NCBI GenBank assembly: GCA_964539395.1 | Contig: CAZIIU010000017.1 | Location: 2,378 to 66,377, forward strand | Reading direction: 5' to 3' | Source of the DNA: an uncultured Bacteroidaceae bacterium | Lineage (GTDB): Bacteria > Bacteroidota > Bacteroidia > Bacteroidales > GCA-2748055 | DNA: 64,000 bases | The notes under the pieces: generated by a model | What the model saw: the letters and a program-made list of their open reading frames with translations, nothing else | Told to the model about the DNA's origin: nothing | Databases searched by the model: none | Shown: one piece after another, positions 2,555 to 44,871 of the stretch | Numbering within the stretch: the stretch's first letter is position 1 | Layout: the number at the start of each line of letters is the position of its first letter | Made by a program: the position numbers and the translations under genes

Positions 2555-3343
2555 CTAAATTGCAGTCCATCCGCCATCTACAATAAGATTTTGGCCTGTT
2601 ATATATTTTGCTTCACCTGATAACAAAAAGGATACTGCAGGGGCTATATCATCAGGGTTCCCCATCCGTTTCATGGGCACTTTTTTTTCATAAGCCTTTA
2701 CAAATGGTTCAGGTTGGTTATCAAAAATTCCACCAGGTGAAACACAATTGACTCTTACATTGTGCTTGCCATAATATGATGCTAGATATCGTGTAAGATT
2801 AATGATTCCTCCTTTTATGGCCGAATACGCTGCGGGCGATGTCATTTGAGTACCTTCGTAAACAGTAAAATCATTTCCAACAACACCATATGTAGAAGCT
2901 ATATTTACAACACTTCCGGATCCTTGTTTCTTCATTATCTCCAACACAACCTGACTTAATATAAAATGGCTGTTCAATTGCCAGTCCATATTATTTCTTA
3001 ATGATTCAGGTTTTATATCTTCAAAAGCGGAGCCCCAATCCTTTGTTCGTGGATAAGCATTATTAACCAGCCCATCAATTCTTCCAAGTTTTTCAGTAAC
3101 ATGATTAACTGATTCAGTTAATGAAATATCATTAGTAATATCACATTCAATCTCGGTAATGTTATCAACACCAGATGCGTGAATATCAAAATTAATTACT
3201 AATGCTTCTTTTCTTCTTAAATCTTTAAGAATTTCCTTACCAATTAGGCCGGAACCACCTGTAACAATAATTACATTGCCATTTAAAATACTCATATTTA
3301 ATAATTTAACGTTTATTTTATTTGAATAATCAAATATTACCAA
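2555..3343 (-). CDS. Short-chain dehydrogenase/reductase (PtmA-like SDR of nonulosonate loci)
   Basis: Contains the TGGSGLIGKE Rossmann motif, NNAYP, and YSAIK (YxxxK). The true start may be the internal Met of MSILNGNVIIVTGG (nt 3295). Confidence 0.8.
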   Translation of the reverse strand: MVIFDYSNKINVKLLNMSILNGNVIIVTGGSGLIGKEILKDLRRKEALVINFDIHASGVDNITEIECDITNDISLTESVNHVTEKLGRIDGLVNNAYPRTKDWGSAFEDIKPESLRNNMDWQLNSHFILSQVVLEIMKKQGSGSVVNIASTYGVVGNDFTVYEGTQMTSPAAYSAIKGGIINLTRYLASYYGKHNVRVNCVSPGGIFDNQPEPFVKAYEKKVPMKRMGNPDDIAPAVSFLLSGEAKYITGQNLIVDGGWTAI

Positions 3344-3350
3344 GCCATTT

Positions 3351-4055
3351 CTATTGATGTTGGAGATATTTAATCATCTGTTCTGCAATAATAAAATCAA
3401 CTTCCCTGTCAATATCCACTGCTATTTCAGGGGAAGTAATTAACGGATAAAATCTATCATCCATAGTTAAAATTTTATTTTCCTCCATTACCAATCTGGT
3501 TTTAAAACCATAGTATTGACCAGAAAGTCTGTATCCGACTAACTGTTTTTGTCGGGGTAAAAAGGGATTAACTTCTTCCAGTAATGGTTTTACTATGCTA
3601 TCGTTTATAACCCAAATTCTTGATGGTGGAGTAGCTGTCTCGCATAAAGAGGCTACAGAATCATAACCTTTATCGAGCGCATTAATTGCAGCTTTTAATT
3701 CAGTTTTATTTCTCAAAGGCGATGTAGGTTCAAGTAAAAAAATGTAATCTGGTTTAAAATTATCTTGCTCCAACACATTAACAGTGTATTTAATTGCGTC
3801 AACAACAAGAGAATTATCCTCAGCCAGATGAGATGGCCTTTTTATAGCATCAATATTATATTCCTTAGCCCGGGAGCAAATTTCATCAGCATCTGAAGAA
3901 ATAATAATTCTATCAAAAACTCCGGAATCAATAGCAAATAGTATGGTGTGGTCAATCAATGGTAAACCTGCCAGTTCTTTAAGATTTTTCCCGGGAACGC
4001 CTTTTGAGCCTCCTCTTGCAGGAATTATGGCAATTATACTTTTTTTATTAATCAT
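3351..4055 (-). CDS. neuA: Acylneuraminate/nonulosonate cytidylyltransferase (CMP-sugar synthetase, NeuA/LegF-like)
   Basis: 234 aa with the N-terminal signature IIPARGGSKGVPGKNLK. It has a 4-nt overlap with the upstream gene (4052..4055). Confidence 0.85.
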   Translation of the reverse strand: MINKKSIIAIIPARGGSKGVPGKNLKELAGLPLIDHTILFAIDSGVFDRIIISSDADEICSRAKEYNIDAIKRPSHLAEDNSLVVDAIKYTVNVLEQDNFKPDYIFLLEPTSPLRNKTELKAAINALDKGYDSVASLCETATPPSRIWVINDSIVKPLLEEVNPFLPRQKQLVGYRLSGQYYGFKTRLVMEENKILTMDDRFYPLITSPEIAVDIDREVDFIIAEQMIKYLQHQ

Positions 4056-5119
4056 ATTTTAAGTTTCTCTATGGCTTTTTTATACTCAATCCATTCACCG
4101 GTATCTGTCCATGAATTTTCACTGATGGGATAGATTCCTATTTTATGAGTTGATTTAATTTTTTTGATGAGATCTGTAATATGAAAAAACTCATTCTCAG
4201 GAATATATTGAAGAACTTTCGGATTTAATACATACATGCCTGTGTTCACAAGCAAATCGTATTCGGGCTTTTCTGTAAGATTGGATAGTGAGCCTCCATT
4301 GCTGATTTCACAAACTCCATATGGAATGCGGTAATTTTTCATAGATGCAACCAGGGTGATATCATTTCCCCTTTCCTGGTGATGTTTTAATAAATCGAAA
4401 TAATCTGCATCAATGATTATATCGCAATTTGTTAAAAAGATCTCTTTGTTAATCTTTCCATCCAGTTGCTTTAACGCTCCAACTGTACCAAGAGGTTTAT
4501 TTTCTATCAGATAATTTATTGTGTAATCAGGATTCAATTCTTCTAAATACGATCTGATGATTTTTGCTTTATGCCCCAGAGATATATAAAAATGATTCAG
4601 TTGATAGGGTAAAAATCTGTCAATAATAAATTCTAATATTGTCTTATTCCCGATTGGAATAAGCGGTTTTGGTAAAACTATAGTAAAAGGATCCAGGCGG
4701 GTGCCTTTGCCTCCGGCCATAATAACAACTACTGCATCAATTTTTTGTTGGATTTTTCGGACAATCTGACCATCAAATAATTTATCCCACACCAAAAACT
4801 CTATAATATTTCTTTTAGAATCTACTACCGGAACATGGGATATTAGTTTGTCTCGAATTTCTGTTTTGATTTTTTGACGGTCATAGCCGGCTTCAGCATA
4901 ATAGGTGTCTTTAAAACAGACATCTTCAACTCTTGCGGTTAATGGACCTTCATTTAGTATCCATCTGCGGATATCGCCATCCGTTAAGGAACCAAACAGG
5001 CGTGTTTGATCTTCTACAACGAAAAGAATTTTCTGCTCATTTTCGTCCAATTGCCTTAACGCTTCCTTTATAGTCGCGGATTTATGAATCAATAAACTTG
5101 GAAAAAGACTTTGCTGCAT
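4052..5119 (-). CDS. CBS-pair plus sugar-1-phosphate nucleotidyltransferase (PtmE-like)
   Basis: 355 aa. The N-terminal part is CBS-like (LFGSLTDGDIRRW ... VPVVDSKRNIIEFL), followed by MAGGKGTRL (the GxGTRL motif of NTP transferases). Confidence 0.8.
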   Translation of the reverse strand: MQQSLFPSLLIHKSATIKEALRQLDENEQKILFVVEDQTRLFGSLTDGDIRRWILNEGPLTARVEDVCFKDTYYAEAGYDRQKIKTEIRDKLISHVPVVDSKRNIIEFLVWDKLFDGQIVRKIQQKIDAVVVIMAGGKGTRLDPFTIVLPKPLIPIGNKTILEFIIDRFLPYQLNHFYISLGHKAKIIRSYLEELNPDYTINYLIENKPLGTVGALKQLDGKINKEIFLTNCDIIIDADYFDLLKHHQERGNDITLVASMKNYRIPYGVCEISNGGSLSNLTEKPEYDLLVNTGMYVLNPKVLQYIPENEFFHITDLIKKIKSTHKIGIYPISENSWTDTGEWIEYKKAIEKLKI

Positions 5120-5162
5120 TTTTGATATTTTTATTTCAAGTTGTAACTGTTTAGCTTTTACT

Positions 5163-5170
5163 CAAAAATA
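5163..5170 (-). promoter_or_regulatory. Candidate internal -7 promoter box (TATTTTTG on the minus strand)
   Basis: The plus strand reads CAAAAATA, the reverse complement of TAnnTTTG. It lies 44 nt upstream of the start at 5119, inside a 223-bp intra-operon gap. Confidence 0.25.
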
Positions 5171-5342
5171 AAGAAAATCCTGAGGTTTAAGAATCAATAC
5201 ACCAATATAACGCGGATATTTACACGATTCTGTAAAAAGTATAAATGACTGAAGTTTTCTGATTGATATATTGTCTATAATGAGGCAAATAAGTAAAAAA
5301 GTTATATATCATAGCCTAAGGGCGATTCGACCAGTCAAACTG

Positions 5343-6398
5343 TTATTTTGCGTCTTTTTGTCTAGTAATTGAAATTAATGGTGATGCCTGATTAGCAATT
5401 TCACTTTTGGGAATATCGTTTGTATCTAGACGCGGTAATACATACTTGTTATGTTTATTCAAATCTGCTATCTCTGAATTTATTGTTAATGCAAGTTTAC
5501 AGTTTAAATTATTTAAAAGCTCTATTGTTGTTTCATTATAGTTACCATGCGGGTAACACATGGTCCATTTATTCATATTACATCCTATTTGTTTAAGAAA
5601 ATCCAACGATTGTAAAATTTCATTTTTTTGTTTTTGTTTTGACAATGTACCCAAATGATAATGATCATAGCCGTGGCTACCAATATGCATTCCGTTTCTT
5701 TGCATACATTTTATCTGCTCAACATCCATGTATAATTCGCGACTAAAATACTTCTCTTCAAATCCGACAATTTTTTCAAATAAATTATGGCTAATAATTT
5801 TACGAAGTTTTTCTTCCAGTTCCGTCTGAAGCAAGCGTTTAACGAACATTACCTCACCGGTATCAAAGCGACTGGGTTTAGCAAGTTTTTCAAAATAATG
5901 AGAGTTGCTTTCCAGTTTATAATCACTTCTAAAGTTATCTAACTCCGTGAAAATAAGACCGATAAGATTTTGTGTATTTTTTTCTGCTGCAAGAATAAAA
6001 TGAATTTTATTTACATCCAGGACTTCATGCTCTGTTATTGCTTTTACCGGCGGATAGAAAGATCCTTGTATTTTATATTCATCAAGAAGCGGAAAAACAT
6101 ATTGAAAATGATCTTTATACCCATCATCAAAGGTAAGTAATGCAGAATGCGCTGGCAAAGACTTTTTGTTTTCAATGGCATCAATAAGCAATTCCATTGT
6201 AATAAAATGATAATGTTTTTTAAGGTATTTGATCTGACCCTTAAAATCCTTAATATCCAATCCTTTTATTTCAGGATATCTACTATGTTTAAGATCTCTC
6301 ACATAGTGGTAGGTTATGATGCTAACCTTATTCTTGCCGACCATTGATTTTTTCGATATTTTTTTCAGATAAGTTTTATCAATCCTTTTTTCTCCCAC
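5343..6398 (-). CDS. Polysaccharide deacetylase (NodB/CE4 homology domain)
   Basis: Contains LLTFDDGYKDHFQYVFPLL (TFDDG motif) and MHIGSHGYDHYHLG (His motif). The likely true start is the internal Met of MVGKNKV (nt 6344), which removes the 34-nt overlap. Confidence 0.75.
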   Translation of the reverse strand: MGEKRIDKTYLKKISKKSMVGKNKVSIITYHYVRDLKHSRYPEIKGLDIKDFKGQIKYLKKHYHFITMELLIDAIENKKSLPAHSALLTFDDGYKDHFQYVFPLLDEYKIQGSFYPPVKAITEHEVLDVNKIHFILAAEKNTQNLIGLIFTELDNFRSDYKLESNSHYFEKLAKPSRFDTGEVMFVKRLLQTELEEKLRKIISHNLFEKIVGFEEKYFSRELYMDVEQIKCMQRNGMHIGSHGYDHYHLGTLSKQKQKNEILQSLDFLKQIGCNMNKWTMCYPHGNYNETTIELLNNLNCKLALTINSEIADLNKHNKYVLPRLDTNDIPKSEIANQASPLISITRQKDAK

Positions 6399-7645
6399 TT
6401 CAACAGATAATCTTCACAAATAACAGGATCAAGAACAAACTGTTCAGCAAGCATTTGAAGGGATATCGGGAAGTTACAGGAAGAAAATAATTCCATCAAT
6501 GTTCTTAAATGCATAGCTTCTTCTTTAACACTGCCAAGTTCCTGCTGACCAATACCAATATCTATGTAAAGATCAAATTTCGGATTGGACACACAAATAT
6601 TGCCTTCAAACTTCTTAATAATGACCGGATCTTTCTCTAATCTTTCTATGGCTTCCATGATAACTGAAACCGATTGCTCAAGTGCATCTGCACTTATTAT
6701 TTCAGGATTATCGCGGTCTGTATGATACTCGGGATAAGGAAACCTTGAAAATGAGGAGACCGGAATGTTATAGCCTGCAAACATATATTCTCCGTTTACT
6801 ACTACACGTCCGTATAACTCATGTCGGTGATCAATCTTTCTTTCTTCCAGCACCTGCTTTATAAAGTATTCTATATTGGTCATCCCTTTTGGCGCTGATT
6901 GCAATCCCAATTGAGTTTCCGTTCCAAGCATCTCCAGAAAAATACCTTCAAAAATATTGCTGTTACAGTTTTTGGCAAGATAATATTCCGCACCGATAAT
7001 TTCATGGTGGAGCAGCAGGGAATAGGAGAACTTTGTTTGTTTATTTGCCAATCTCTTCATTACTTCAACACCCACTGCACATCCCACAAGGTCATCATTG
7101 GACATACCCGGATGGTCGAGATGAGCAGCAAATAATACGGTGTCATCAAGCTCTCCTTTGTGCGTATATTCAAGTACTTTCAGATTACCCTCCGACTCAT
7201 CTGTTTTTATTACTACATCATAATCTCCATCTTGCAATGAATCATAGAAATTCCTGGGTACACAAAATCCCCAGTCTCTATCCCAACTTCGGTAAAGTTG
7301 ACGAAAATGGTATGGCACAGCGTCTGGAAACCTGGCATCATAATGAAGGTGTTTTTTAAGTTCTTCCCGGCTTATTTTTCCTTCAAAGGGAAGAGAAAGA
7401 GCAATAACTCTGAGTGGATGTTCTTTACCATCATATATAATCTTACCATCTTTCATAATTTTTGCTTCAATCACATCCCATCTTGGAGGTATTACCCAGC
7501 CATTGATTTCCTGATCCGGTGTATAGGTGTGAACCTGGAAAGGGAGTATGTTTCCAAGATAATCAATGGAACGATCATAATCATCTGAACAAAAAACCCT
7601 GTTGAGGTAAGTTAAATCGTGTATAATATTCATCATAACTGACAT
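6365..7645 (-). CDS. Aminopeptidase-like (M28-fold, DUF4910/DUF2172-type) protein
   Basis: 426 aa. AAHLDHPGMSNDDLVGCAV looks like an M28-type metal-ligand region. I recall the family as recurrent in nonulosonic-acid loci. The assignment is from memory only. Confidence 0.45.
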   Translation of the reverse strand: MSVMMNIIHDLTYLNRVFCSDDYDRSIDYLGNILPFQVHTYTPDQEINGWVIPPRWDVIEAKIMKDGKIIYDGKEHPLRVIALSLPFEGKISREELKKHLHYDARFPDAVPYHFRQLYRSWDRDWGFCVPRNFYDSLQDGDYDVVIKTDESEGNLKVLEYTHKGELDDTVLFAAHLDHPGMSNDDLVGCAVGVEVMKRLANKQTKFSYSLLLHHEIIGAEYYLAKNCNSNIFEGIFLEMLGTETQLGLQSAPKGMTNIEYFIKQVLEERKIDHRHELYGRVVVNGEYMFAGYNIPVSSFSRFPYPEYHTDRDNPEIISADALEQSVSVIMEAIERLEKDPVIIKKFEGNICVSNPKFDLYIDIGIGQQELGSVKEEAMHLRTLMELFSSCNFPISLQMLAEQFVLDPVICEDYLLKWEKKGLIKLI

Positions 7646-7709
7646 AACAAATTCATTTGGTTTTAGTGTAATATGGAAAAAAAAACTCTTGTTCTGTGAC
7701 AGATTGTAA

Positions 7710-8639
7710 TTATATCTGGATGTCCGTAAGTTTGACTTCTTTGTTATTCCTGGCAGACAAATTCCCGGCTATTAAAACTTTCATTATATTTAAAGTCTTT
7801 TGAGGGGATATAACCGGTTTTTGCGTGTTGATCATTTCCGCAAAATGCCAAAGGGCTCGTCGAAACATGGAAAAGTTATCTACGACTTCATGAGTTGAGA
7901 TCAATTTTTCACCCATAACATCAACCCTGAAGATCTTCGGCACATTGCCCATAGTATTTATCTCAACCTTTAGCCCATCAGACATGGTAATGATAACAGA
8001 ACGAAATTCGGTGTCAAGTGCAAGGACTGTCTCAGGATCAGTATTCAATAAACCCATAACAGCTTCCACCATATGCACGCCATATTTTTCCCAAGAGAAC
8101 AATACAGTACCCCGAATGAGTTTCAACTCTCCATAAGAATTTAGATTTCCCCGAACTTCATCCAGTTCTTTTGCAAACCTTAATCCCGAGCAAGACATAA
8201 GCTTCCCTTCTTCAAGAAAAGGTTTGAAGTAACTTAATTCTTCAGGATCCATAGCCAACGGCTTATCTAAAAATACCGATAGGCCTGCATCGAGAAAAGG
8301 TTGAGCCATTTTTTTGTGGTTTTCAAAGTCATCTCTTGCAATGATTACTGCATCAACTTCTCCGATCATTTCTTCGTAGTTATCCGGAGTTTTTTCAATG
8401 AATGCTGAATCGCATAATTTTTTTGTTTGTTCTTTATCCTGTGTCCAGGCATGCGTTATCTTCAGATTTTGAATCCCAAACTCCGACCGATCCCTTATCC
8501 TGACATAATTATATATTCCATCCCAGCCAGATTTTGCCAGGCCTTCATCAGAATAGCCATTTATTATTGATGAGAAAGAATACGGGTGTCCGTTTCCTTC
8601 ACTCATACCTATTATGCCTACTTTAACAACACTGCTCAT
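7710..8639 (-). CDS. Gfo/Idh/MocA-family oxidoreductase
   Basis: 309 aa with an N-terminal Rossmann segment VKVGIIGMSEGNGHPYSF and DAVIIARDDFENH. It has a 4-nt overlap with the upstream SDR gene. Confidence 0.7.
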   Translation of the reverse strand: MSSVVKVGIIGMSEGNGHPYSFSSIINGYSDEGLAKSGWDGIYNYVRIRDRSEFGIQNLKITHAWTQDKEQTKKLCDSAFIEKTPDNYEEMIGEVDAVIIARDDFENHKKMAQPFLDAGLSVFLDKPLAMDPEELSYFKPFLEEGKLMSCSGLRFAKELDEVRGNLNSYGELKLIRGTVLFSWEKYGVHMVEAVMGLLNTDPETVLALDTEFRSVIITMSDGLKVEINTMGNVPKIFRVDVMGEKLISTHEVVDNFSMFRRALWHFAEMINTQKPVISPQKTLNIMKVLIAGNLSARNNKEVKLTDIQI

Positions 8640-9385
8640 GATATAACTTTTTTATAACGTTTATCGGCTTTTCCTTCAAGCCATTGTATTCCTTCAAGAT
8701 TTGGAAACAATGGAATTTCATACCCAAGCCAAAAGAATTTTCCAGTCGGACCATCTTTTTCTGATTTCAAAAGATAATCCACAGTAGGATGACAAACAGA
8801 AGGATCCATAGGTGCGTCAGGCGCCATATTTGATCTTACCGGTCCCGGGCTCATGAGGTTTATTTTAATGTTATGGTCTGCATATTCTCTTGCAGCCGTT
8901 ACTGTAATTGCGTTTAAAGCCCCTTTTGATGAACTGTACATGGCAAATCCCGGGAAACAATTCAACGGAGCTCCTGATGTGATATTGATGATCCGTCCAA
9001 AGTTATTCTCCTTCATAGCCGGTAAAAACTGTTGCATGGCAATCATCGGAGCAATGGCATTTACATGCATGAATTCTATCAACTGATCGTATGTGATATC
9101 TGGCAACTCCACTCTTTTGTTAACACCGGCATTATTTATCACATAAGGAATATAACTATATTTTTCAGATAATTCCCTGAAAAGCTTGCTACATTCTTTC
9201 TGATTTGATAAATCAATTGCAAAACAACTGATATTTTGATTGTTCCCAAATAGTTCTTCGAGTTTGTTTTTATTTCTGCCGAGAGCCAATATGTGGTAGC
9301 GGTCAGCATATTGATTTACCAATGAGAGTCCCACACCGCTGGTAACGCCGGTGATCAAAAGATAGGGTTTGTTGTCTTTTGTCAT
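8636..9385 (-). CDS. Short-chain dehydrogenase/reductase
   Basis: Contains LITGVTSGVGLSL (TGxxxGxG), INNAGVN and YSSSKGAL (YxxxK). Confidence 0.85.
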   Translation of the reverse strand: MTKDNKPYLLITGVTSGVGLSLVNQYADRYHILALGRNKNKLEELFGNNQNISCFAIDLSNQKECSKLFRELSEKYSYIPYVINNAGVNKRVELPDITYDQLIEFMHVNAIAPMIAMQQFLPAMKENNFGRIINITSGAPLNCFPGFAMYSSSKGALNAITVTAAREYADHNIKINLMSPGPVRSNMAPDAPMDPSVCHPTVDYLLKSEKDGPTGKFFWLGYEIPLFPNLEGIQWLEGKADKRYKKVIS

Positions 9386-9444
9386 AGATTTTTTTAAGAT
9401 TTAATTTTAAGATTAAAAAAACAAGCAACTATTTTGCTGTTTTC

Positions 9445-9452
9445 CAAAAATA
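9445..9452 (-). promoter_or_regulatory. Candidate internal -7 promoter box (TATTTTTG on the minus strand)
   Basis: The plus strand reads CAAAAATA, 60 nt upstream of the start at 9385, inside a 290-bp gap in the minus-strand operon. Confidence 0.25.
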
Positions 9453-9676
9453 GAGAATATATTGGGATTATCTAAAATTTTACTCCAATTCAGTGCGGTT
9501 GGTTAAAATTAATGATTAAAATTCAACTTAACCAGTGGTCCTAAATTTGGGTAGTATTATCGTAGGCTGTAGTTACTGATATGACTTGTAAAGTTACGAA
9601 AAAATGACGGGTCATAGGAAGCTGGACAGCAAGCGTATTGGTTCGAAAGAGACTGGTTTCAAAATCGGATTTTTTC

Positions 9677-10903
9677 TCAGGAATAGATAAAGCTTGCATG
9701 TGGAATAAAAGCAATACTGTTCGTACTGTTATCAATGATTAATTGAACATCATTTATATTGATTTTTTTCATATTAAGTTGTTGACAGGTATTGTCTGGC
9801 AGCGATGTAACCACAAAAACTTTAATTCTATTTGTTTTCTGCATTAAAGCAAGGGCTGTCCCGGCATTGTTCTCATAGCGTATTGCCATTTTTGAAAACA
9901 GATCATTCCATCCATTGCCAGCAATCAGCTCCAAGAATGAATTGTTACCAATTCCATCTTTACATTTTGCCAGAAGAATCAACGTACCACCATCCTTTAC
10001 AATTGATGCTGCATTATGCAGTGATTTATGTGATTGAATGAAATTAATGTCTTTAGGATAACCGCCGGCACTTGCTATAACCAGGTCATACTTTTGAGTT
10101 GTATTAATCTTATAATGGGATTCATAAAAACTACACGCACGTTCGAAAATTTTATAGTTCTTACCTACATATAGTTTGACAACTTCCCCCCTGCTATTCA
10201 ATATAGAATGTATGCCAATTGTCACGGGCAATTTGTTATAAATTTCTTTCAGGTCCTCAGCAACCGGATTTCCAGTTAATATTCCTGAATTACATTTTGA
10301 TCGCAGTTTGTTTTCTTTAAAATTCAGAAAAAGAGAGTGGTTGTGAAGAATTGATTTTTTTGCTCCAAGTCCGGGAAACATCAGTTTTCGACCTCCGCCG
10401 AACCCTGCAAAATAATGGTGCGAGATTGCACCAAAAGTTATAATTATATCGCATTTAAGTGTGTCCTTATTGATTAAAGCTTCTGTTCCAAAAGTGGTTT
10501 TTCCAAGATTGTCAAATTCAGATGTTTCCGAATTATGATGAATAAAATCGTAGTTTAGGTAGCTTTCCCCGTAAGCGTCCAGACTTTCTTTATCCGATTG
10601 CCTGGGATGGGTGCCATATGCTACGTAGAATCGAATCTTAACAGGTTGGTCTAAACTCGCAGTAATCGAATCAATGACCCAGGGAAGATACTTCTGATAT
10701 TCCGATAACCTGGTCTTATCTGCCACGACAATCCCAATAGTTATCCCGGTTTTTATTGATGGAAGGATTGAAAGTATACAATTCTCCATCTCCTGAAAAA
10801 AGCTATCTCTATTTACACCTGGTGACGGTTCCTTGTATTTAATCAACACAGGCTCACCATGAATACTTAATTCCAGGTTGCTGCGTCCATATTTTAAACG
10901 CAT
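9677..10903 (-). CDS. LarA-like (DUF2088, nickel-pincer-dependent 2-hydroxyacid racemase/epimerase family) protein
   Basis: 408 aa. GAISHHYFAGFGGGRKLMFPGLG followed by ILHNHSL matches the His/Gly-Gly-x-Lys/His block that I recall for the LarA N-terminal domain, where the Lys tethers the cofactor. Confidence 0.65.
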   Translation of the reverse strand: MRLKYGRSNLELSIHGEPVLIKYKEPSPGVNRDSFFQEMENCILSILPSIKTGITIGIVVADKTRLSEYQKYLPWVIDSITASLDQPVKIRFYVAYGTHPRQSDKESLDAYGESYLNYDFIHHNSETSEFDNLGKTTFGTEALINKDTLKCDIIITFGAISHHYFAGFGGGRKLMFPGLGAKKSILHNHSLFLNFKENKLRSKCNSGILTGNPVAEDLKEIYNKLPVTIGIHSILNSRGEVVKLYVGKNYKIFERACSFYESHYKINTTQKYDLVIASAGGYPKDINFIQSHKSLHNAASIVKDGGTLILLAKCKDGIGNNSFLELIAGNGWNDLFSKMAIRYENNAGTALALMQKTNRIKVFVVTSLPDNTCQQLNMKKININDVQLIIDNSTNSIAFIPHASFIYS

Positions 10904-10935
10904 ATTATTATATTTAATTCGTTAAAGGTTCATTA

Positions 10936-11838
10936 TCAGGAAGTAGCATTAAGTTTTTTCATTGCCATAACTACCCTGATATTGCCCTGGTCATCTGCAA
11001 CAGAATCTACTTTGCTGTAAAACCCGCTCTTTAATAATAAGTTCAGTACCATCGGACCCTGGCCAACACCCACCTCAAATACCAGCCATCCCCCTGGGGA
11101 TAGCAATTGCGGGGTTTCGCGAATAAGTCGTTGAATTATCTTAAATCCCAACATACCGCCATCAAAAGCCATATCTGGTTCATTGTCTGCTATTTCAGCA
11201 TTCATTTTTGATACCTTGAAACTGGAGATATAGGGTGGATTACAGGCAACTAAATCCACTTTCCGGGAAAATTTATCATTCATGAATTCTTCAAAAAGAT
11301 CACTTTGCATGACTTTAACCCGCTCATTGATGCCAAGCAAATCAATATTCTCCTTTGCCAGTTCAATGGCCTCCGCAGATAAATCTGCAACATAAACATT
11401 TGCATCAGGGTTGTAATATGCAATAGAGAGTCCGACATTGCCGGCCCCACAGCAGACATCGACTATGTTGACATTATTAAAGGTATAAGAGATATTCAGA
11501 GCAGTTCTTGAAAGTATTTCAGTCTCCTTCCTGGGAATTAAGGCTCTTCTATCAGCTTTCATTTCAATACCCATGAAATTTGTCCTGTTGGTTAAATGAG
11601 CCAGTGGAATATTATTAATTCTTTTTTGTATAAGCTCATCCAGCATGGTAACGAGCTCTTCATCAAGTTCTGGCAGAGGCAACTTCATTGCTAATTCGGC
11701 TGATTTTGGTTCTCCGTGTGCCATAAACCAGAGCGCCCTGAGGGTTGAATGGCAGGTTTCCTCCGGCTTATCTTCAAGCAGTTTAAGCTTATTCTCCAGC
11801 AGCAGTATTCTTTCACTGTAAATTGTATCTGTTTTCAT
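10936..11838 (-). CDS. HemK/PrmC-family SAM-dependent methyltransferase (NPPY class)
   Basis: Contains VDVCCGAGNVGLSIA (SAM motif I), VACNPPYISS (NPPY motif IV), and the HemK-like segment IPLAHLTNRTNFMGIEMKADRRALIPRKETEIL. Confidence 0.8.
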   Translation of the reverse strand: MKTDTIYSERILLLENKLKLLEDKPEETCHSTLRALWFMAHGEPKSAELAMKLPLPELDEELVTMLDELIQKRINNIPLAHLTNRTNFMGIEMKADRRALIPRKETEILSRTALNISYTFNNVNIVDVCCGAGNVGLSIAYYNPDANVYVADLSAEAIELAKENIDLLGINERVKVMQSDLFEEFMNDKFSRKVDLVACNPPYISSFKVSKMNAEIADNEPDMAFDGGMLGFKIIQRLIRETPQLLSPGGWLVFEVGVGQGPMVLNLLLKSGFYSKVDSVADDQGNIRVVMAMKKLNATS

Positions 11839-11886: not shown

Positions 11887-13485
11887 TTACCTATCATTAC
11901 CAGGCTTGGTTGACAGATACCTTTGCTTTAATTCCTTTTTGTCAATTTTACCATTGGAGCTTTTTGGCATCTCATCAATAAATATTACTTGCTGGGGAAT
12001 CATGAAAACCTCGAGCTTCTTTGAACACTCATATTGTATGGTCTGTATATCCAGTTTTGTGTTATTATAGGAGGTCACATATGCCACGATTCCCTCTCCC
12101 ATAATATCATGTGGAAAACCGATTATGGCGACTTCCTTCACACCCTCTATTTTGTAGATCACATTTTCAATTTCAATCGGACTAACTTTTTCACCCCGTG
12201 TTTTTATGATATCATCGGTTCGACCAAGGAAATATAAGAATCCGTCTTCATCCATTCTGAAAAGGTCATGAGTGCATAATATCTTCTCTCCCGGAATTCT
12301 GCCGGGTCTGAGCATCTCTTCGGTTAGTTTCTCATTGTTCCAATAGCCTGCCATAACGTGCGGTCCCCTGACATGCAAAATCCCTGTGCCATCTTCTTTG
12401 ATTTCGTTTCCATTTTCATCGCGTAAAAAAACCTCCGTGCCCGGGATTGCCTTGCCTACGGAAGCAGTTTTTTCATCAATCAGTTCAGGTTCCAAATAGC
12501 AAACCCTTTTACATTCAGTCAGACCATACATTTTAAAAATCAACGCATTGGGAAATACCCTTTTAAGACCAGGAATGATTTCCGGCGTCAGAGCTGCAGC
12601 CGTATTGGTAATCTTCATAATACTATCAAAAGCTATTCCTGTTTTTTTATTTGACTCTATCATCATTGTAAAAATAGTTGGCACGCCAGGAAAAACCGTA
12701 GGTTGCCATCTATCTATCTGTTTATATACAGTAGAAGGAAAAACAAAGGAGTGTTCAATAATAAGTGTACCACCTGTTGTAACAGCCATAAATAATTGGT
12801 AGAGCCCATAATCAAATGCAAGTGGCAAAACGAGCATAATACGTTCGTCCCTGGTTAACCTCAGGTATTGAATAAGGCTCCATGAAGTAAACACCATTGA
12901 TTGGTGGGTCATCATAACTCCTTTGGGAAATCCGGTACTACCAGATGTGTAAATCAATGCTGCCAAATCATTAGGAATAATGATCGGATAGGGGATTGAA
13001 GTTAGATTGGAAGAGCGTATCTGGTCGTAATTATTTATCTTAAACCTTATCTCATCTGATTTAATTTCCTCATTTAAAGTAAAAATGACCTCTTGAATTG
13101 TTTCCACTTCATTCACAGTATTGTAAAGATTCCTGGTTGTAGAATCTGTAAATAGAATTTTTGCCCCACTGTCTTTCAGAATATATTGAAGCTTGTCTGC
13201 TTTAGTTTGAGGATTAATAACCAGAAAGACTGCACCTGCAATAGTAGCACCATAGATTGCAACGATTGATTGCCAGGAGTTGTTCATGTAAATAGCCACC
13301 CTGTCACCTTTTTCTATCCCTTTATTAAGTAAGTATTGAGCCATTTTTTCAGACCAATCCTTCAGATATTTGTAAGAGTATTCAGAATCCTCGCAAATCG
13401 CCAGGGTTTTATCAGGATTCAATGCTGATGAAATAAGCAGGGCTTCACCCATTAGGCGCTGAGGGATCAAAGATTGGTTTTTCAT
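11887..13485 (-). CDS. AMP-forming acyl-CoA/acyl-carrier ligase (ANL superfamily)
   Basis: 532 aa with YTSGSTGFPKGV (the AMP-binding signature), GRTDDIIKTRGEKV and the C-terminal PKSSNGKIDKKEL lysine motif. Confidence 0.9.
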   Translation of the reverse strand: MKNQSLIPQRLMGEALLISSALNPDKTLAICEDSEYSYKYLKDWSEKMAQYLLNKGIEKGDRVAIYMNNSWQSIVAIYGATIAGAVFLVINPQTKADKLQYILKDSGAKILFTDSTTRNLYNTVNEVETIQEVIFTLNEEIKSDEIRFKINNYDQIRSSNLTSIPYPIIIPNDLAALIYTSGSTGFPKGVMMTHQSMVFTSWSLIQYLRLTRDERIMLVLPLAFDYGLYQLFMAVTTGGTLIIEHSFVFPSTVYKQIDRWQPTVFPGVPTIFTMMIESNKKTGIAFDSIMKITNTAAALTPEIIPGLKRVFPNALIFKMYGLTECKRVCYLEPELIDEKTASVGKAIPGTEVFLRDENGNEIKEDGTGILHVRGPHVMAGYWNNEKLTEEMLRPGRIPGEKILCTHDLFRMDEDGFLYFLGRTDDIIKTRGEKVSPIEIENVIYKIEGVKEVAIIGFPHDIMGEGIVAYVTSYNNTKLDIQTIQYECSKKLEVFMIPQQVIFIDEMPKSSNGKIDKKELKQRYLSTKPGNDR

Positions 13486-14133: not shown

Positions 14134-14802
14134 ATGATAAAGGAAAAATTATTGGTTTTTGGAGCTTCAGATTACTCCGGTTATACAATAGATGTATTGG
14201 AGAAGCAAAACGAGTATGAAATATTTGGCATCCTTGATTATAATACCAGGAAAGATAACATCTTTTGTGGTTATAGTATTTTAGGCAATGATGATGACCT
14301 GCCTGAAATATATAAGAATACCGGGATAAAAAAGGGAATTGTTACAATTGGAGACAACTACAGGAGAAAAGTAGTTGTCGAAAGAATCCGGGGATATATT
14401 CCTGATTTTGAATTTGTGTCTGCTCTCCACCCCTCGCTGATATTGGGAAAGAACGCCAGGATTGGTAAAGGTTGCGCAATAATGGCCGGTGTTATCTTGA
14501 ATAACAATACTGTTGTTGGTGACCATTGTTACATTGGAACAAATTCTTCCCTTGACCATGATGGAATTGTTGGAGATTATTCAAATGTTATGCCAGGTGT
14601 GACTACAGGAGGCAATGTGAGGATTGGATTCTGTTCAACCCTTGGACTTGGCACAAAAGTAATTCATGGCAGGACCATAGGAGATCATACCGTTATCGGA
14701 GCAGGAGCATTGGTAGTGAAGGATTTTGGAGACAATCTTCTTGCTTTTGGGGTCCCGGCAAAAAAAACAAGAGACAGGGATATTGGTGAAAAATACCTTT
14801 AA
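14134..14802 (+). CDS. neuD: NeuD/PglD-family sugar N-acetyltransferase (LegH-like)
   Basis: 222 aa. An N-terminal Rossmann-like LLVFGASDYSG is followed by C-terminal hexapeptide repeats (IGKGCAIMAGVILNNNTVVGDHCYIGTNSSL, IGDHTVIGAGALV). Confidence 0.8.
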   Translation: MIKEKLLVFGASDYSGYTIDVLEKQNEYEIFGILDYNTRKDNIFCGYSILGNDDDLPEIYKNTGIKKGIVTIGDNYRRKVVVERIRGYIPDFEFVSALHPSLILGKNARIGKGCAIMAGVILNNNTVVGDHCYIGTNSSLDHDGIVGDYSNVMPGVTTGGNVRIGFCSTLGLGTKVIHGRTIGDHTVIGAGALVVKDFGDNLLAFGVPAKKTRDRDIGEKYL

Positions 14803-14832
14803 AGGACAATTTGAGATATTAATACTTATAAA

Positions 14833-15831
14833 ATGAAGAATATACTATTAATTGGAGGAGCTGGTTACATCGGGACCGTTCTGACCTCGCATTTTTTGAC
14901 CCGTGGCTATAAAGTGACGGTATTAGATAATTTTACCTATAAAAACCAGTTTGCTGTTATTCCGTTCATCGGAGAGAAAGGTTACAGGCTTATAGCAGGC
15001 GATATGAATGATCCGGTTATACTGGACGAAGCATCGAAGGATATTGATGATGTGATTCTGCTTGCCGGTCTTGTTGGGGATCCGATTACTAAAAAGTACC
15101 CGGTTGAATCTGGTTTAATAAATGAAAAAGGCATAAAGCACTGCATGGATTTTTTTAGTGATAAAGCGATCAATAAAATGATATTCATTTCTACCTGTTC
15201 AAATTATGGATTAATTAAGGAAGATGAACTGGCAGATGAGAATTTTGACTTAAATCCCTTGTCACTTTATGCGAAGGCCAAGGTGAGCAATGAACAATAT
15301 TTGATGGATAAAAAAGGGAATGCAAATTATGCAGGTGTAGTTTTGCGATTTGCAACAGCTTTTGGTCCCTCACCCAGAATGAGGTTTGATCTGACTGTAA
15401 GTGAGTTTGTCAGAGACCTCTATTTTGGCAAAGAACTCATTGTTTTTGATGAAGATACCTGGAGACCTTACTGCCATGTAAGGGACTTTGCCAGGTTAAT
15501 TGAATTGGTATTGAATGCAGAGAATGCTATTGTTAATTACGAAGTATTTAATGCGGGGGGAGAAGTAAACAATTTTACCAAGAAAATGATGGTTGAGACC
15601 ATTTTGGAATATATTCCGGATGGGATTGTTAAATATTCAGATAACGGAAGTGATCCAAGAAACTACAGGGTTTCATTTGAAAAGGTTAAAAAGACTTTAG
15701 GATTTATGCCTGAGTATACAGTGAGGGATGGTATTTTAGAATTGATCTCTGGACTAAGGAATGGAATTTATGCTGACTCCCTGGACGATAAGAACAGGTA
15801 TGGAAATTATGAAATCACTTACAAAAGCTAA
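14833..15831 (+). CDS. NAD-dependent sugar epimerase/dehydratase (candidate LegB-type 4,6-dehydratase)
   Basis: 332 aa with LLIGGAGYIGTVL (GxxGxxG) and YAKAK (YxxxK). Confidence 0.75.
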   Translation: MKNILLIGGAGYIGTVLTSHFLTRGYKVTVLDNFTYKNQFAVIPFIGEKGYRLIAGDMNDPVILDEASKDIDDVILLAGLVGDPITKKYPVESGLINEKGIKHCMDFFSDKAINKMIFISTCSNYGLIKEDELADENFDLNPLSLYAKAKVSNEQYLMDKKGNANYAGVVLRFATAFGPSPRMRFDLTVSEFVRDLYFGKELIVFDEDTWRPYCHVRDFARLIELVLNAENAIVNYEVFNAGGEVNNFTKKMMVETILEYIPDGIVKYSDNGSDPRNYRVSFEKVKKTLGFMPEYTVRDGILELISGLRNGIYADSLDDKNRYGNYEITYKS

Positions 15832-15850
15832 GAATTATATAAGTTGTTAA

Positions 15851-17017
15851 ATGGATCAATTTGCAGAAATAGCCGGATTCATACGTAGTATCTTTCGAAA
15901 AGAAAAGGAGTTTATCCCTCTACATGCACCCGTATTCCTGGGAAATGAAAAGAAATATCTTGAGGAGTGTATTGATTCTACGTTTGTTTCGAGTGTTGGA
16001 AAGTTTGTCGATCAATTTGAGGAAGAGATAGCCAATTATACGGGAGTTAATAAAGCCGTTGCATGTGTTAACGGAACTAACGCCCTACACATGGCTCTCA
16101 TACTTTCAGGGGTTGAAAGTGATGATGAAGTCATTACACAACCCCTCACTTTTATAGCTACGGTGAATGCGATCAGGTACTGCGGCGCAAAACCGGTTTT
16201 TGTAGATATTGAAAAGGAAACACTGGGTTTGAGTCCGACTTCTCTGAGTCGCTTCCTGCGAGAGACTGCAGTGGTGAAAAAAGAGGGTTGTTTCAACAGA
16301 GTTACTGGCAAAAGAATAAAAGCCTGTGTCCCGGTACATATTTTTGGTCATCCCTGCAGGATCGATGAGATTGTGAAGATATGTTCAGAATTTAAGATCA
16401 AGGTTGTAGAGGATGCGGCTGAAAGCCTTGGTAGCAGATATAAAGGGAAACACACCGGCACTTTTGCTCCAATGGGAATCTTAAGTTTTAACGGGAATAA
16501 GATTCTTACATCAGGGGGAGGAGGAATGTTGCTTTGCAATGATGAAGAACTGGCAAGAAATGCAAAACACCTGACGACGCAGGCAAAAGTCCCGCATCCC
16601 TGGGATTTCAATCATGATGAAATAGGATATAATTACAGGATGCCGAATTTAAATGCCGCACTTGGGTTGGCACAACTGGAAAAACTGGATTATTATATCG
16701 AATTAAAAAGAACACTTGCTGAAAAGTATGATAGTTTCTTTACCCCACTGGATATAGAATTTATTGCTGAACCTGACGATTCATATTCCAATTACTGGCT
16801 ATGTTGTATTTTATTAAATAATGCGGAGGAGCGCAATAGTTTCCTAAATTATACCAACGAAAGAGGGATTATGACCCGGCCTGCATGGAAACTGATGAAC
16901 GAATTGCCAATGTTCCGCGACTGCCAGGTATTTGAAAACCATCAGGCAAAGAAAATTGCAGATACACTTGTCAATATTCCCAGTTCGGTAATTCCGGAAT
17001 TATCAAAAGATAATTGA
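15851..17017 (+). CDS. DegT/DnrJ/EryC1/StrS PLP-dependent sugar aminotransferase (LegC/PglE-like)
   Basis: 388 aa. GILSFNGNKILTSGGGG contains the SF-x-x-x-K PLP lysine block. The DegT-type N-terminus includes IPLHAPVFLGNEKKYLEECIDS. Confidence 0.9.
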   Translation: MDQFAEIAGFIRSIFRKEKEFIPLHAPVFLGNEKKYLEECIDSTFVSSVGKFVDQFEEEIANYTGVNKAVACVNGTNALHMALILSGVESDDEVITQPLTFIATVNAIRYCGAKPVFVDIEKETLGLSPTSLSRFLRETAVVKKEGCFNRVTGKRIKACVPVHIFGHPCRIDEIVKICSEFKIKVVEDAAESLGSRYKGKHTGTFAPMGILSFNGNKILTSGGGGMLLCNDEELARNAKHLTTQAKVPHPWDFNHDEIGYNYRMPNLNAALGLAQLEKLDYYIELKRTLAEKYDSFFTPLDIEFIAEPDDSYSNYWLCCILLNNAEERNSFLNYTNERGIMTRPAWKLMNELPMFRDCQVFENHQAKKIADTLVNIPSSVIPELSKDN

Positions 17018-18078
17018 TCAAAAAATTCACTATGAAAAACAGAGGTTCGGGTGCGAATAAAGTAATAATTATCGCAGAAGCAGGTGTAAATCATAATGGA
17101 GACATGAACCTCGCTGAGAAGCTGATTGATGCAGCCGCAGATGCAGGTGCAGATTATATTAAATTCCAGACCTTTAAAGCAGAATTGATTATATCTAGAA
17201 AAGCACAGAAAGCCAGGTATCAGATGGAAAATACAGGCAATAGTGCTGAGACTCAATTTGAGATGGTAAAAAAGCTTGAATTAAGTTATGATTCTTTTAG
17301 AAGACTAAAAATATACTGTCAGTCAAAAAATATAGAATTTCTTTCTACAGGTTTTGACCTTCCCAGCATTGATTTCCTTGATGAACTTGGTCAGCCTTTC
17401 TTTAAGATTCCATCAGGAGAGGTTACCAATAAGCCTTACCTCGAACATATTGCCAGAAAAGGAAAACCTGTTGTTATGAGTACCGGGATGGCTGACATGC
17501 AGGAGATTAACTTAGCTTTTAAGGTGTTGTTGGACAATGGATTGTCACGAAAGGATATTACTATTCTACATTGTAATACCGAGTATCCCACACCTATGCA
17601 GGATGTGAATCTCAAAGCAATGTTATCAATGCGTGATGAACTTGGTGTAAGGATAGGGTATTCTGATCATACATTGGGGATAGAAATTCCTATTGCAGCC
17701 GTTGCCATGGGAGCGGCGCTTATTGAAAAGCACTTTACACTGGACAGGAATTTACCAGGACCTGATCATAAAGCATCGCTTGAACCGGATGAACTTAAAC
17801 AAATGGTTAGTTCTATACGTAACGTTGAACTGGCGTTGTCCGGTAACGGGATAAAAGAACCCAGCAGGTCAGAAAAACCCAATATACCAATAGCAAGAAA
17901 AAGCATTCATCTTAATGTAAAACTTAATGCAGGTACGGTACTTTGCAGGAAACACCTTGTAATGAAACGTCCGGGGACCGGGATTTCTCCAATGGATATA
18001 GATGAAGTACTGGAAAAAAAATTGGCAGTCACACTCGATGCTGATACTATGTTATTATGGGAAAATCTAAAAGACTAA
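17014..18078 (+). CDS. neuB: N-acylneuraminate/legionaminate synthase (NeuB/LegI family)
   Basis: Contains IIAEAGVNHNGD, GYSDHT, and a C-terminal SAF-like domain (IARKSIHLNVKLNAGTVLCRKHLVMKRPGTGISP). It has an ATGA overlap with the upstream gene. Confidence 0.9.
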   Translation: MIKKFTMKNRGSGANKVIIIAEAGVNHNGDMNLAEKLIDAAADAGADYIKFQTFKAELIISRKAQKARYQMENTGNSAETQFEMVKKLELSYDSFRRLKIYCQSKNIEFLSTGFDLPSIDFLDELGQPFFKIPSGEVTNKPYLEHIARKGKPVVMSTGMADMQEINLAFKVLLDNGLSRKDITILHCNTEYPTPMQDVNLKAMLSMRDELGVRIGYSDHTLGIEIPIAAVAMGAALIEKHFTLDRNLPGPDHKASLEPDELKQMVSSIRNVELALSGNGIKEPSRSEKPNIPIARKSIHLNVKLNAGTVLCRKHLVMKRPGTGISPMDIDEVLEKKLAVTLDADTMLLWENLKD

Positions 18079-19187
18079 AAGTTGGAGTTTTAACAAGTTC
18101 CAGGGCGGATTATAGCATATATTCCCCTCTTCTTTTAAAGATTGAAGAAGATTCATTTTTTGAAATGGAGGTCCTGGCATTTGGCACGCATTTGATGAAA
18201 AAATTTGGTCATACGGTTGATTGTATCTATAAGGATGGATTTAATATAGTTGAAATAGGAGAGACCATGAGTGAGAGAGATTCCCCGTCTGATATCTCAA
18301 ATGCGATGGCGAGGACTATAATAGCATTTTCCTCTTTTTTTGAGAAAAATGAATATGATCTGATTATTGCTTTAGGTGATCGTTATGAAATGTTTGCTTC
18401 CGTCGTTGCTTCAGTTCCCTTCATTATTCCTGTCGCACATATTGCAGGCGGGGAAACAACCCTGGGTGCCATTGATAATGCATTCAGGCACTCGATAACA
18501 ACTTTTTCCAGTATTCATTTCGCTACGACTGATATCTATCGGGACCGGATCAGGGAGATCACCGGGATGGACAGACATATATATAATGTGGGCTCCCTGA
18601 GTATTGATAATCTAAAAAAACTAAAACTACTGGATGTATATGAATTTAATGATCGGTTTGGTATAGATATGTCCACCCCGACCATTCTGTTTACCTTCCA
18701 TCCCGAAACAGTAAATTATCAAAAGAGTAAAGTTTACATAAAAGAAATAATAGATGCCATTGAAAAATTATCCGGTTACCAATTGCTGATAACCATGCCA
18801 AATGCTGATACCATGGGCTTAATGATAAGGGAAGAACTTGAAAGATATGCAGAAAGTCAGCCGAATGTTTATACGGTAGAAACCCTTGGAACATTAGGTT
18901 ACCTTTCTGCAATGAAACACTGTTCTTTCATTTTAGGAAATACATCGAGTGGTTTTACGGAAGCAGCATTTTTCCCTAAATGGGTCATTAATCTTGGAGA
19001 TCGTCAGAAAGGAAGGATTATAACCCCAAATATAGTACAGACCCCAATAAAAAGTGAAGCGATACTGAATTCGATCCAACAGATCGAAAATACCAGTCTC
19101 ACTGATAATTGTAATATCTATGGTGACGGGAATGCTGCTGACCGGATCGTTTCAATCATAAAAAATATTTTTGAATCCAATGATTAG
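18057..19187 (+). CDS. neuC: UDP/GDP-N-acetylglucosamine 2-epimerase, hydrolysing (NeuC/LegG family)
   Basis: 376 aa with the LGDRYEMFA and HIAGGETT motifs. Confidence 0.9.
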
Positions 19188-43699: not shown

Positions 43700-43718
43700 G
43701 ACATAGTGCATTCTCTTT

Positions 43719-44870: not shown

Positions 44871-44871
44871 G

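Follow-up and report, generated by a model that had tools for sequence, protein, structure and literature searches.

The reactions known up to 2026 for enzymes of the LarA family, which depend on a nickel-pincer nucleotide (NPN), are the racemization and epimerization of free 2-hydroxy acids in central or catabolic metabolism, and the hexonate 2-epimerases also belong to the superfamily. That the characterized enzymes act on free 2-hydroxy acids, as was stated in an earlier sequence-only reading of the DNA studied here, agrees with the literature of 2020–2026. Stereodefined 2-hydroxy acids are also found in glycans of Bacteroidota. The glycan of Tannerella forsythia contains Pse5Am7Gra with an N-glyceroyl group, the genetic basis of which was called "a major challenge" by the authors, and that of Flavobacterium psychrophilum contains amide-linked malic acid. 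In Tenacibaculum maritimum, 2-hydroxyglutaric acid is joined to an amino sugar by an amide bond and forms a bridge to a nonulosonic acid. In Campylobacter jejuni, the aminopeptidase-like Cj1295 is needed for the formation of di-O-methylglyceroyl pseudaminic acid. A literature search found no report tying LarA or nickel-pincer enzymes to polysaccharides, or LarA to Bacteroidetes, and no LarA is reported in the published T. maritimum O-antigen clusters. Here, we analyzed a LarA homolog encoded at 9677..10903 on the minus strand of a 64-kb stretch of contig CAZIIU010000017.1 from an uncultured Bacteroidaceae bacterium (the whole stretch being referred to as the window), where it lies within a nonulosonate locus. 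The main outputs are a delimited orphan LarAH clade with a diagnostic change in the substrate pocket and a testable hypothesis of nickel-pincer–dependent tailoring of surface glycans.

The open reading frame (ORF) at 9677..10903 was confirmed to be an intact and bona fide member of the LarA superfamily that is selectively maintained. The product, which has 408 amino acids from an ATG start and belongs to a Despr_1964-like clade, contains HHYFAGFGGGRK at residues 162–173 and HNH at residues 187–189, and the earlier identification of a LarA-family homolog from these motifs was borne out by the ORF itself, the Pfam domains, the matches in the PDB, and the predicted fold. Both domains were detected by profile search above the gathering score, with 3.7e-36 and 124.7 bits for Lar_N (gathering score, 23.3) and 7.5e-14 and 52.4 bits for LarA_C (gathering score, 25). 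The best match in a sequence search of the PDB was the malate racemase (MAR) Mar2 (2e-44), followed by the apoprotein of the lactate racemase from T. thermosaccharolyticum (1.6e-35) and by Lactiplantibacillus plantarum LarA (2.1e-30). An AlphaFold2 model built from an alignment of 30 sequences had a mean predicted local distance difference test (pLDDT) score of 88 and a predicted template modeling (pTM) score of 0.86, being weak in confidence only at residues 169–175, which correspond to the GGGRK cofactor loop. When this model was compared with the PDB by Foldseek, LarA-type structures accounted for all of the top 19 matches, with template modeling (TM) scores of up to 0.83, and the scores of 0.81–0.83 indicate that the modeled protein has the two-domain alpha/beta fold of LarA. 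Furthermore, the ratio of nonsynonymous to synonymous substitutions (dN/dS) was 0.21 (dS, 0.27) against an 89%-identical copy in another locus (L004), indicating that the gene is under purifying selection.

Active-site residues were assigned by counting along the HMMER alignment to L. plantarum LarA in the numbering of 5HUQ, and the count is self-consistent because the known numbering of LarA was recovered at H108, H174, K184, and H200. The residues D62, R65, H99, H163, K173, H189, I289, Q290, and K293 of the window protein were thereby matched to D72, R75, H108, H174, K184, H200, Y294, Q295, and K298 of LarA, respectively. The two catalytic His residues (H99 and H163), the cofactor-tethering Lys (K173), and the Ni-binding His (H189), conservation of which had been put forward earlier as the point to be checked by alignment to L. 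plantarum LarA, are all kept and are invariant in an alignment of 172 clade sequences. The residues that bind the carboxylate and the NPN phosphate (D62, R65, Q290, and K293) are also all present, and the full set of invariant positions in this alignment comprises D62, R65, H99, H163, F165, K173, H189, I289, Q290, H292, and K293, the sole exception for D62 and R65 being one gapped sequence. Near-invariant were Y164 (170/172), N346 (171/172), G348 (170/172), and T349 (171/172). In addition, C204 and C257 are clade-specific and hardly vary, whereas C314 and C373, which are conserved too, are common to the 2-hydroxyglutarate racemases (HGRs). We consider it likely that the window protein racemizes or epimerizes a free 2-hydroxy acid in an NPN-dependent manner. 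The NPN cofactor would be carried on Lys173 and His189, and the C2 stereocenter of the acid would be inverted by proton-coupled hydride transfer via His99 and His163, which is the established mechanism of LarA. In LarA, the residues equivalent to R65, Q290, and K293 form a triad that binds the free alpha-carboxylate. Because this triad is invariant in the clade, a 2-hydroxyacyl group in amide linkage would not be a substrate, and any role of the enzyme would precede activation, with the acid being handled in its free form.

With respect to the substrate, the residues at the specificity positions (equivalents of F175, F176, W358, and T359 of LarA) are Y164, F165, G348, and T349. The signatures described for these positions are F, F, W, E/Q in lactate racemases, Y, F, H/Q, T in HGRs, x, x, H/Q, K in MARs, and E, V, A, H in gluconate epimerases (Urdiain-Arraiza et al, 2024, PMC11770544). 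None of the equivalog cut-offs of NCBIfam was reached, the scores being 261 bits for the MAR model LarAH6 (cut-off, 500), 248 bits for LarAH10 (cut-off, 540), 240 bits for LarAH5 (cut-off, 462), 208 bits for Ni_dep_LarA (NF033504; cut-off, 460), and 27.8 bits for NPN_18_hexonate (cut-off, 500). Assignment as a lactate racemase was rejected on the low Ni_dep_LarA score and on the residues Y, F, G, T, which are not F, F, W, (E/Q/T). Assignment as a MAR (LarAH5 or LarAH6) was likewise rejected, with the scores below the cut-offs and G348 and T349 in place of H/Q and K, as was that as a gluconate or hexonate 2-epimerase (groups 18–20), from whose E, V/S loop and A, H signature the protein differs and whose model gave the low score stated above. 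For the HGRs of groups 7a and 11, the Y, F, and T are kept, but the Gln/His is Gly in 170 of the 172 sequences and the identity is 30–32%, so that the protein was not assigned to them either.

A database search with the window protein returned 2,611 homologs, at the top of which was a dense family of proteins of ∼408 amino acids with 45–57% identity. When species-representative genomes were scanned for this clade, at least 564 relatives were found, and a scan of JGI metagenome contigs gave 293; the hosts are mostly Bacteroidales metagenome-assembled genomes (MAGs), together with Desulfobulbales/Desulfobacterales, Atribacteria, and one Leptospira MAG; the closest loci come from MAGs labeled as uncultured Bacteroidaceae. 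The median identity of the window protein to the clade is 46%, 51% being typical within the clade, and its identity to a malate racemase is 26%. By sequence comparison, the window protein is a member of a large uncharacterized clade that is sister to the HGRs, and the clade may best be described as HGR-like LarAH with Gly in place of the pocket Gln/His. Since Gly occupies this position, the probable substrate is not lactate but a free 2-hydroxy acid that resembles 2-hydroxyglutarate or is bulkier, as far as can be judged from the residues of the pocket.

Among the characterized groups, the HGRs have the highest identity to the window protein, and those compared, LarAH7 of Deferribacter desulfuricans (group 7a) and LarAH32 of Geobacter metallireducens (group 11), resemble it in fold, length, and the D-R-H-H-Y-F-K-H core. 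They also have in common with it the I-Q-H-K motif on the carboxylate side, which is identical to that of the group 11 HGR-type logo, and N-x-x-T-A in helix alpha14. They differ in the pocket Gln/His at the position of W358 of LarA and in the motif N-R-Q-T-A, which reads N-G/A-G-T-A in the clade, and the clade is set apart from them by an internal identity of ∼50% and by C204 and C257. Mar2 (LarAH6, PDB 6D6Z/7S91), the best match in both the PDB and NCBIfam, has all the NPN and catalytic residues in common with the window protein, but G-H-K of the MARs reads A-G-T, so the window protein lacks the Lys that pairs with the second carboxylate of malate. L. plantarum LarA (5HUQ; Foldseek TM score, 0.81–0.82), in which the eight residues of the active site other than Y294 are the same, is only 23% identical and differs by the change of F175/W358/Y294 to Y/G/I and by a larBCE and lactate permease context, which the window lacks. 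The sole representative of the clade found in the literature is Despr_1964 of Desulfobulbus propionicus, placed by Desguin et al (2020) in the heterogeneous "group 7b, unknown function" together with three unrelated sequences. It is 45% identical to the window protein (median identity to the clade, 49%) and has the motifs HHYFAGFGGGRK, PKDIN(M/F)IQ(T/S)HK, and GNGGTALAMM in common with it, whereas its host belongs to Desulfobacterota and a glycan context is not reported for it. The clade, extending over hundreds of Bacteroidales and Desulfobulbales genomes with all the catalytic residues invariant and one pocket change compared with the HGRs, is a well-defined target for the existing systems for NPN expression and assay.

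As for the physiological role, the explanation that we favor is that the LarA homolog may supply an enantiomer of a 2-hydroxy acid for the decoration of the glycan made by the locus, a reading to which we give a probability of about 45% and which comes mainly from the position of the gene in this locus. Candidate acids would be 2-hydroxyglutarate, malate, glycerate, or a relative, the first two being the substrates of the two characterized LarAH groups nearest to the window protein, and the enantiomer would go into an amide- or ester-linked decoration of a legionaminic-type or exopolysaccharide glycan. A legionaminic-type nonulosonate gene set, as judged from profile matches, flanks the LarA gene on both sides. 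One part is a divergent core at 14134..19187 on the plus strand, which encodes a NeuD/PglD-like N-acetyltransferase, a 4,6-dehydratase, a DegT aminotransferase, NeuB, and a hydrolyzing UDP-GlcNAc 2-epimerase (NeuC), with scores above the cut-off for TIGR03570 (182 bits) and TIGR03569 (NeuB, 478 bits). The other part, at 2555–9385, belongs to an array on the minus strand that runs from 13485 to 2555. The array begins with an ANL (AMP-forming) ligase (11887–13485; AMP-binding, 5e-86) and a HemK/PrmC-like S-adenosylmethionine–dependent methyltransferase with an NPPY motif (10936–11838; TIGR03534, 203 bits; hemK_fam, 194 bits), which are followed by the LarA gene with same-strand spacings of only 48 bp between ligase and methyltransferase and 32 bp between methyltransferase and LarA. 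Beyond a gap of 291 bp (9386..9676), the array continues with genes assigned by Pfam and NCBIfam: a short-chain dehydrogenase/reductase (SDR; 8636–9385), a GFO_IDH_MocA oxidoreductase (7710–8639), a DUF4910/DUF2172/M28 aminopeptidase-like protein (6365–7645), a polysaccharide deacetylase (5343–6398), a CBS+NTP-transferase protein (4052–5119), a CMP-nonulosonate synthetase-like protein (3351–4055), and a PtmA-like SDR (2555–3343). The neighbors named in the sequence-only reading (SDR, HemK-type methyltransferase, and ANL ligase in a nonulosonate operon) are thus as it had described, with the qualification that the SDR lies beyond the gap. Elsewhere, the window consists of a single large polysaccharide locus, which encodes Wzm/Wzt, Wzx, many glycosyltransferases, a pyruvyl transferase, Bac_transf, Wza/Wzc, and a protein resembling WbpM. 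A protein with a type IX secretion system (T9SS) tail, by which the organism is recognized as a member of Bacteroidota, is also encoded in the window.

A role in glycan decoration is supported by the presence in the same locus of a de-N-acetylase and an aminopeptidase-like protein, which are of the kinds implicated in the exchange of N-acetyl for glyceroyl in C. jejuni, the protein at 6365–7645 fitting the Cj1295 family by published description only. It is also supported by the purifying selection, by the common direction with the ligase and methyltransferase genes, and by the glycan or sulfation loci in which the nearest clade-mates are found. The N-acyl tailoring systems of C. jejuni and T. 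forsythia resemble the window in having a nonulosonate locus where an aminopeptidase-like protein is combined with a deacetylase, a methyltransferase, and an enzyme for acid activation; they differ in that no LarA-family enzyme has been tied to either of them. The supply of an enantiomer, which was one of two functions suggested from the sequence, is the most coherent functional idea and has precedents, although the attachment by the adjacent ligase that was part of the suggestion is weakened, as described below. If the glycan role is true, this would be the first tie of nickel-pincer enzymology to cell-surface glycan biosynthesis, and it would account for where the stereodefined hydroxy-acid substituents in the nonulosonate glycans of Bacteroidota come from, offering a genetic handle on the stereochemistry of the N-glyceroyl and 2-hydroxyglutaryl decorations. 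A wider form of this reading, in which a subclade of the Despr_1964-like homologs would consist of NPN racemases dedicated to glycan tailoring, is possible but less likely than not. These enzymes would provide the non-metabolic enantiomer of a 2-hydroxyglutarate-, malate-, or glycerate-like acid, and this acid would be linked through an amide, as a substituent or a bridge, to a nonulosonic acid of the legionaminic type or to a neighboring amino sugar in Bacteroidales surface polysaccharides.

The second suggested function was the direct epimerization of a C-OH center on a sugar acid, for which the nonulosonate, a precursor, or a different sugar acid that is bound to the glycan or linked to a nucleotide may be considered. 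The replacement of Trp/Gln by Gly348 would widen the predicted pocket, hexonate 2-epimerases exist in the superfamily, and an SDR neighbor is typical of the sugar-acid LarAH groups. However, nonulosonic acids are 2-keto-3-deoxy acids, the C2 of which is a keto or hemiketal carbon, and have no CH-OH adjoining the carboxylate. Because such an acid offers no 2-hydroxy-acid center (C3 being deoxy), its direct epimerization is chemically unlikely. The residues are also unlike the signature of GntE (E, V, A, H), the hexonate epimerase model scored far below its cut-off, and the clade shows no association with sugar-acid genes. Taken together, direct action on a sugar acid is highly improbable, being the least probable of the explanations weighed here.

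The contexts of the nearest relatives were examined with respect to the supply of an enantiomer for the glycan. In a neighbor-joining (NJ) tree, the window protein groups with that of L004, then with L001/P0003, and then with L006/P0019 and P0038. In this group (window, L004, L001, L006, and P0038; n = 5, without support values), the window, L001, and L006 are polysaccharide loci, L004 has genes for the synthesis of 3'-phosphoadenosine 5'-phosphosulfate (PAPS), and L170 is too short to be informative. In L001, the LarA gene lies within a polysaccharide cluster that includes glycosyltransferases, a TylF methyltransferase, a FemAB-like protein, Bac_transf, and, four genes upstream of LarA, an adenylating enzyme of the CapK type. 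In L006, the order is WbpM (78% identical to that of the window), an EpsH-like protein, Wza, Wzc, a GDP-mannose dehydratase, an epimerase, and LarA, with a gap of 80 bp before LarA, and in L004, adenosine 5'-phosphosulfate (APS) kinase and CysN/C adjoin LarA. Given the small size of the group and a tree without support values, this evidence for a glycan context is only suggestive.

To cover the clade more widely, ORFs were called and clustered in 83 LarA-clade loci, and the window genes were compared by tblastn with all of the 163 loci (2.1 Mb). The results of this survey, together with those on the ligase given further below, weigh against a role in the glycan. No conserved partner gene of LarA was found in the 83 clustered loci. 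The commonest neighbors were histidine kinases/response regulators (20 loci), an unannotated 555-amino-acid protein (15), and PKD/CHU_C proteins (14), followed by extracytoplasmic function (ECF) sigma factors, PorP/SprF, and Metallophos (11 each), APS kinase and NAD-epimerase (10 each), Bac_transf and CysQ (8 each), FolP, Tmk, and TpiA (7 each), and YfhO (5). The nonulosonate set was present in none of the 163 loci, with a single NeuB-like match of 35% identity, and tblastn over these loci found no homolog of HemK, DUF4910, GFO_IDH, the CMP-synthetase, PglD, LegC, or NeuC beside a clade LarA; the survey of LarA homologs next to neuB/legI that had been proposed therefore gave no second case. 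Glycan genes, for which a panel of 31 proteins was searched by tblastn and binned by distance from LarA, were not enriched toward it (0.19 per 10 kb at 0–2 kb compared with 0.40 per 10 kb at 8–10 kb), the panel being insensitive, as seen from the under-counting of L001, and valid only for the relative trend, which distance does not bias. Furthermore, window positions 9654–10912 are 91% identical in nucleotide sequence to positions 367–1625 of L004, a contig of an uncultured Bacteroidaceae MAG, and the homology ends within ∼25 bp of the LarA gene, the flanks being unrelated. Since the homology is confined to the gene, the position of LarA in the window is attributed to recent shuffling, and since it stops at the gene ends, the gene behaves as a cassette that moves between tailoring contexts.

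The 291-bp gap, which separates LarA from the nonulosonate tailoring genes and may represent a boundary of transcription units, is a further such point. No terminator-like hairpin was found in it, and a TATTTTTG element lies ∼50 nt upstream of the SDR start, which we take to be a −7 box of the Bacteroidetes TAnnTTTG type; that it marks a boundary is our assumption. No Rfam family reached the gathering score in the whole 64-kb window, and an RNA element in the gap was hence rejected.

These results bear on the possibility that the LarA homolog is a 2-hydroxyacid racemase of general metabolism that plays no part in the glycan and has landed in a polysaccharide locus prone to recombination. Such a bystander would be in keeping with the mostly variable and non-glycan surroundings of the clade (histidine kinases, PorP/SprF, Mla-like ABC transporters, FolP/Tmk/TpiA, and CdaA), the lack of enrichment of glycan genes, the breakpoints relative to L004 at the gene ends, the gap downstream of LarA, possibly with a promoter of its own for the next genes, and the identity values, by which the window protein is no outlier in the clade. 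On the other hand, a bystander would not be expected to be co-directional and tightly spaced with the ligase and methyltransferase genes, to have its nearest clade-mates likewise in glycan or sulfation loci, and to be flanked by nonulosonate genes on either side. We regard the bystander as a realistic explanation, although not the favored one, and if the glycan link is false, the locus would show that position in hyper-recombinogenic polysaccharide loci is weak functional evidence.

The proteins for cofactor synthesis, LarB (AIRC), LarC (DUF111), and LarE, were not found among the window ORFs of at least 100 amino acids by profile search, nor were they found by a six-frame motif scan of the 64 kb, so that their absence from the window, noted earlier from the sequence, was upheld. 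The only PP-loop gene of the window, at 445–1434, was considered as LarE and rejected, because it scored 413 bits with the NAD synthase model (NF002048) and 30 bits with the LarE model (cut-off, 150). Beside the clade members, no larBCE was found in the 163 loci and no LarC or LarE motif in any of them, which also counts against a glycan role. It could be supposed that the host makes no NPN and that the protein is inactive or has another cofactor or chemistry, and the rarity of LarAH genes in cultured Bacteroidota (9 of 192 organisms) would fit with this. In that case, however, the residues for cofactor tethering (Lys), Ni binding (His), and catalysis (two His) would hardly be invariant in 172 sequences, nor would the gene be under purifying selection, and larA homologs often lie apart from the lar biosynthesis genes. 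The larBCE-free context of the window clade agrees with Table S1 of Desguin et al (PMC7583248), where group 7 is not associated with LarBCE. A cofactor-less or repurposed protein is therefore very unlikely.

If the LarA homolog supplies an acid for the glycan, the adjacent ANL ligase could be its partner, with the enantiomer being adenylated by the ligase and attached to the nonulosonate at an amino group freed by de-N-acetylation, which is a special case of the glycan role. The adjacency of ligase, methyltransferase, and LarA on one strand, the deacetylase and aminopeptidase-like protein in the same block, the precedents of N-glyceroyl groups, and the CapK-type adenylating enzyme in L001 all point in this direction. 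However, the ligase belongs to a family with thousands of relatives, with 64–83% identity among the matches listed, and among the NCBIfam models it comes closest to "exosortase A system-associated acyl-CoA ligase" (438 bits, under the cut-off of 592). In three independent contexts across Bacteroidota (L164, L167, and L168), the same HemK-like methyltransferase, 55–81% identical to that of the window, comes after the ligase, and one protein of 836 amino acids (P0180) was called as a fusion of the two. The companions of this pair are a NadE-like PP-loop protein, an AsnB-like amidotransferase, and a small PP-binding protein, in sugar-gene surroundings and never with LarA. The window ligase was not found in the 163 LarA-clade loci, and no carrier-protein ORF adjoins the ligase in the window. 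A conserved pairing of LarA with a ligase was also considered and rejected, because the ANL proteins that adjoin LarA in L003, L005, and L030 represent one syntenic lineage with 85% mutual identity and are 23% identical to that of the window. Since the adjacency of LarA and this ligase is unique to the window and the ligase has conserved partners of its own, the more specific reading, in which the product of LarA is attached by this ligase, is weakened. The ligase is not established as a partner of LarA, and coupling to it is unlikely.

With regard to the methyltransferase, its assignment as a housekeeping PrmC is unlikely, because the same ligase family precedes it in three independent contexts and in one fusion, although the PrmC model was passed, if narrowly (203 bits compared with 199 bits). 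The partners described above make up a recurrent five-gene module of Bacteroidota sugar loci (L164–L169), consisting of a PP-binding carrier, AsnB-like, NadE-like, and ANL proteins, and the HemK/PrmC-like NPPY methyltransferase, and our guess is that it functions in amidation or amidine formation with N-methylation of a sugar substituent. The window has a second part of the module at 3–1434 on the plus strand, opposite to the ligase and methyltransferase genes: the tail of an AsnB-like gene at 3–200, detected as a tblastn match of the AsnB of L167, and the NadE-like PP-loop gene at 445–1434, which is 58–67% identical to the module genes of L167 and L168. An inversion of ∼11 kb (∼2.5–13.5 kb), which would rejoin the split module, was considered and left as speculation, because inverted repeats are absent at the putative breakpoints. 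The NadE-like gene has a G+C content of 55%, compared with 31–41% in every other gene examined, and an antisense ORF of equal length (478–1467), whereas its orthologs in L167 and L168 have an ordinary G+C content of 37–41%. It is possible that this gene is a recent foreign replacement of a single gene.

Among the neighbors of LarA in the clade, the unannotated protein of ∼555 amino acids, which has no Pfam match (L065, 11219–12886, and 14 others), is the steadiest one downstream on the same strand, being 3–7 bp away in four loci. It has a signal peptide–like N terminus and, by eye, the look of an outer-membrane beta-barrel.

Some other features of the window were also observed. In the same polysaccharide locus as the LarA homolog, a DUF362 protein of 442 amino acids is encoded at 41373–42701 on the plus strand, followed at 42698–46002 by an ATP-grasp-like protein, an FrhB/FdhB-like Fe-S protein, and a polysaccharide pyruvyl transferase. 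DUF362 is the family taken as the outgroup of the LarA superfamily in PMC11770544, and kinship of this protein to the LarA homolog was rejected, the similarity by BLASTP being only marginal. Between NeuC and Wzm/Wzt, the plus-strand region 19490–21420 contains an ORF of 336 amino acids with no Pfam or NCBIfam match and then one of 307 amino acids that matches DegT/DnrJ aminotransferases only in its central part (51 bits), which may be a degenerate or unusual aminotransferase pair. The overlapping plus-strand ORFs at 30943–31341 and 31232–31753 each give a full-length FdtA/WxcM-like match (∼130 amino acids of the profile) and are either tandem duplicates or frameshifted. Finally, weak Exosortase_EpsH-like membrane proteins are encoded both in the window (33503–34777, plus strand) and in L006 (2405–3490), and both adjoin WbpM/Wza/Wzc.

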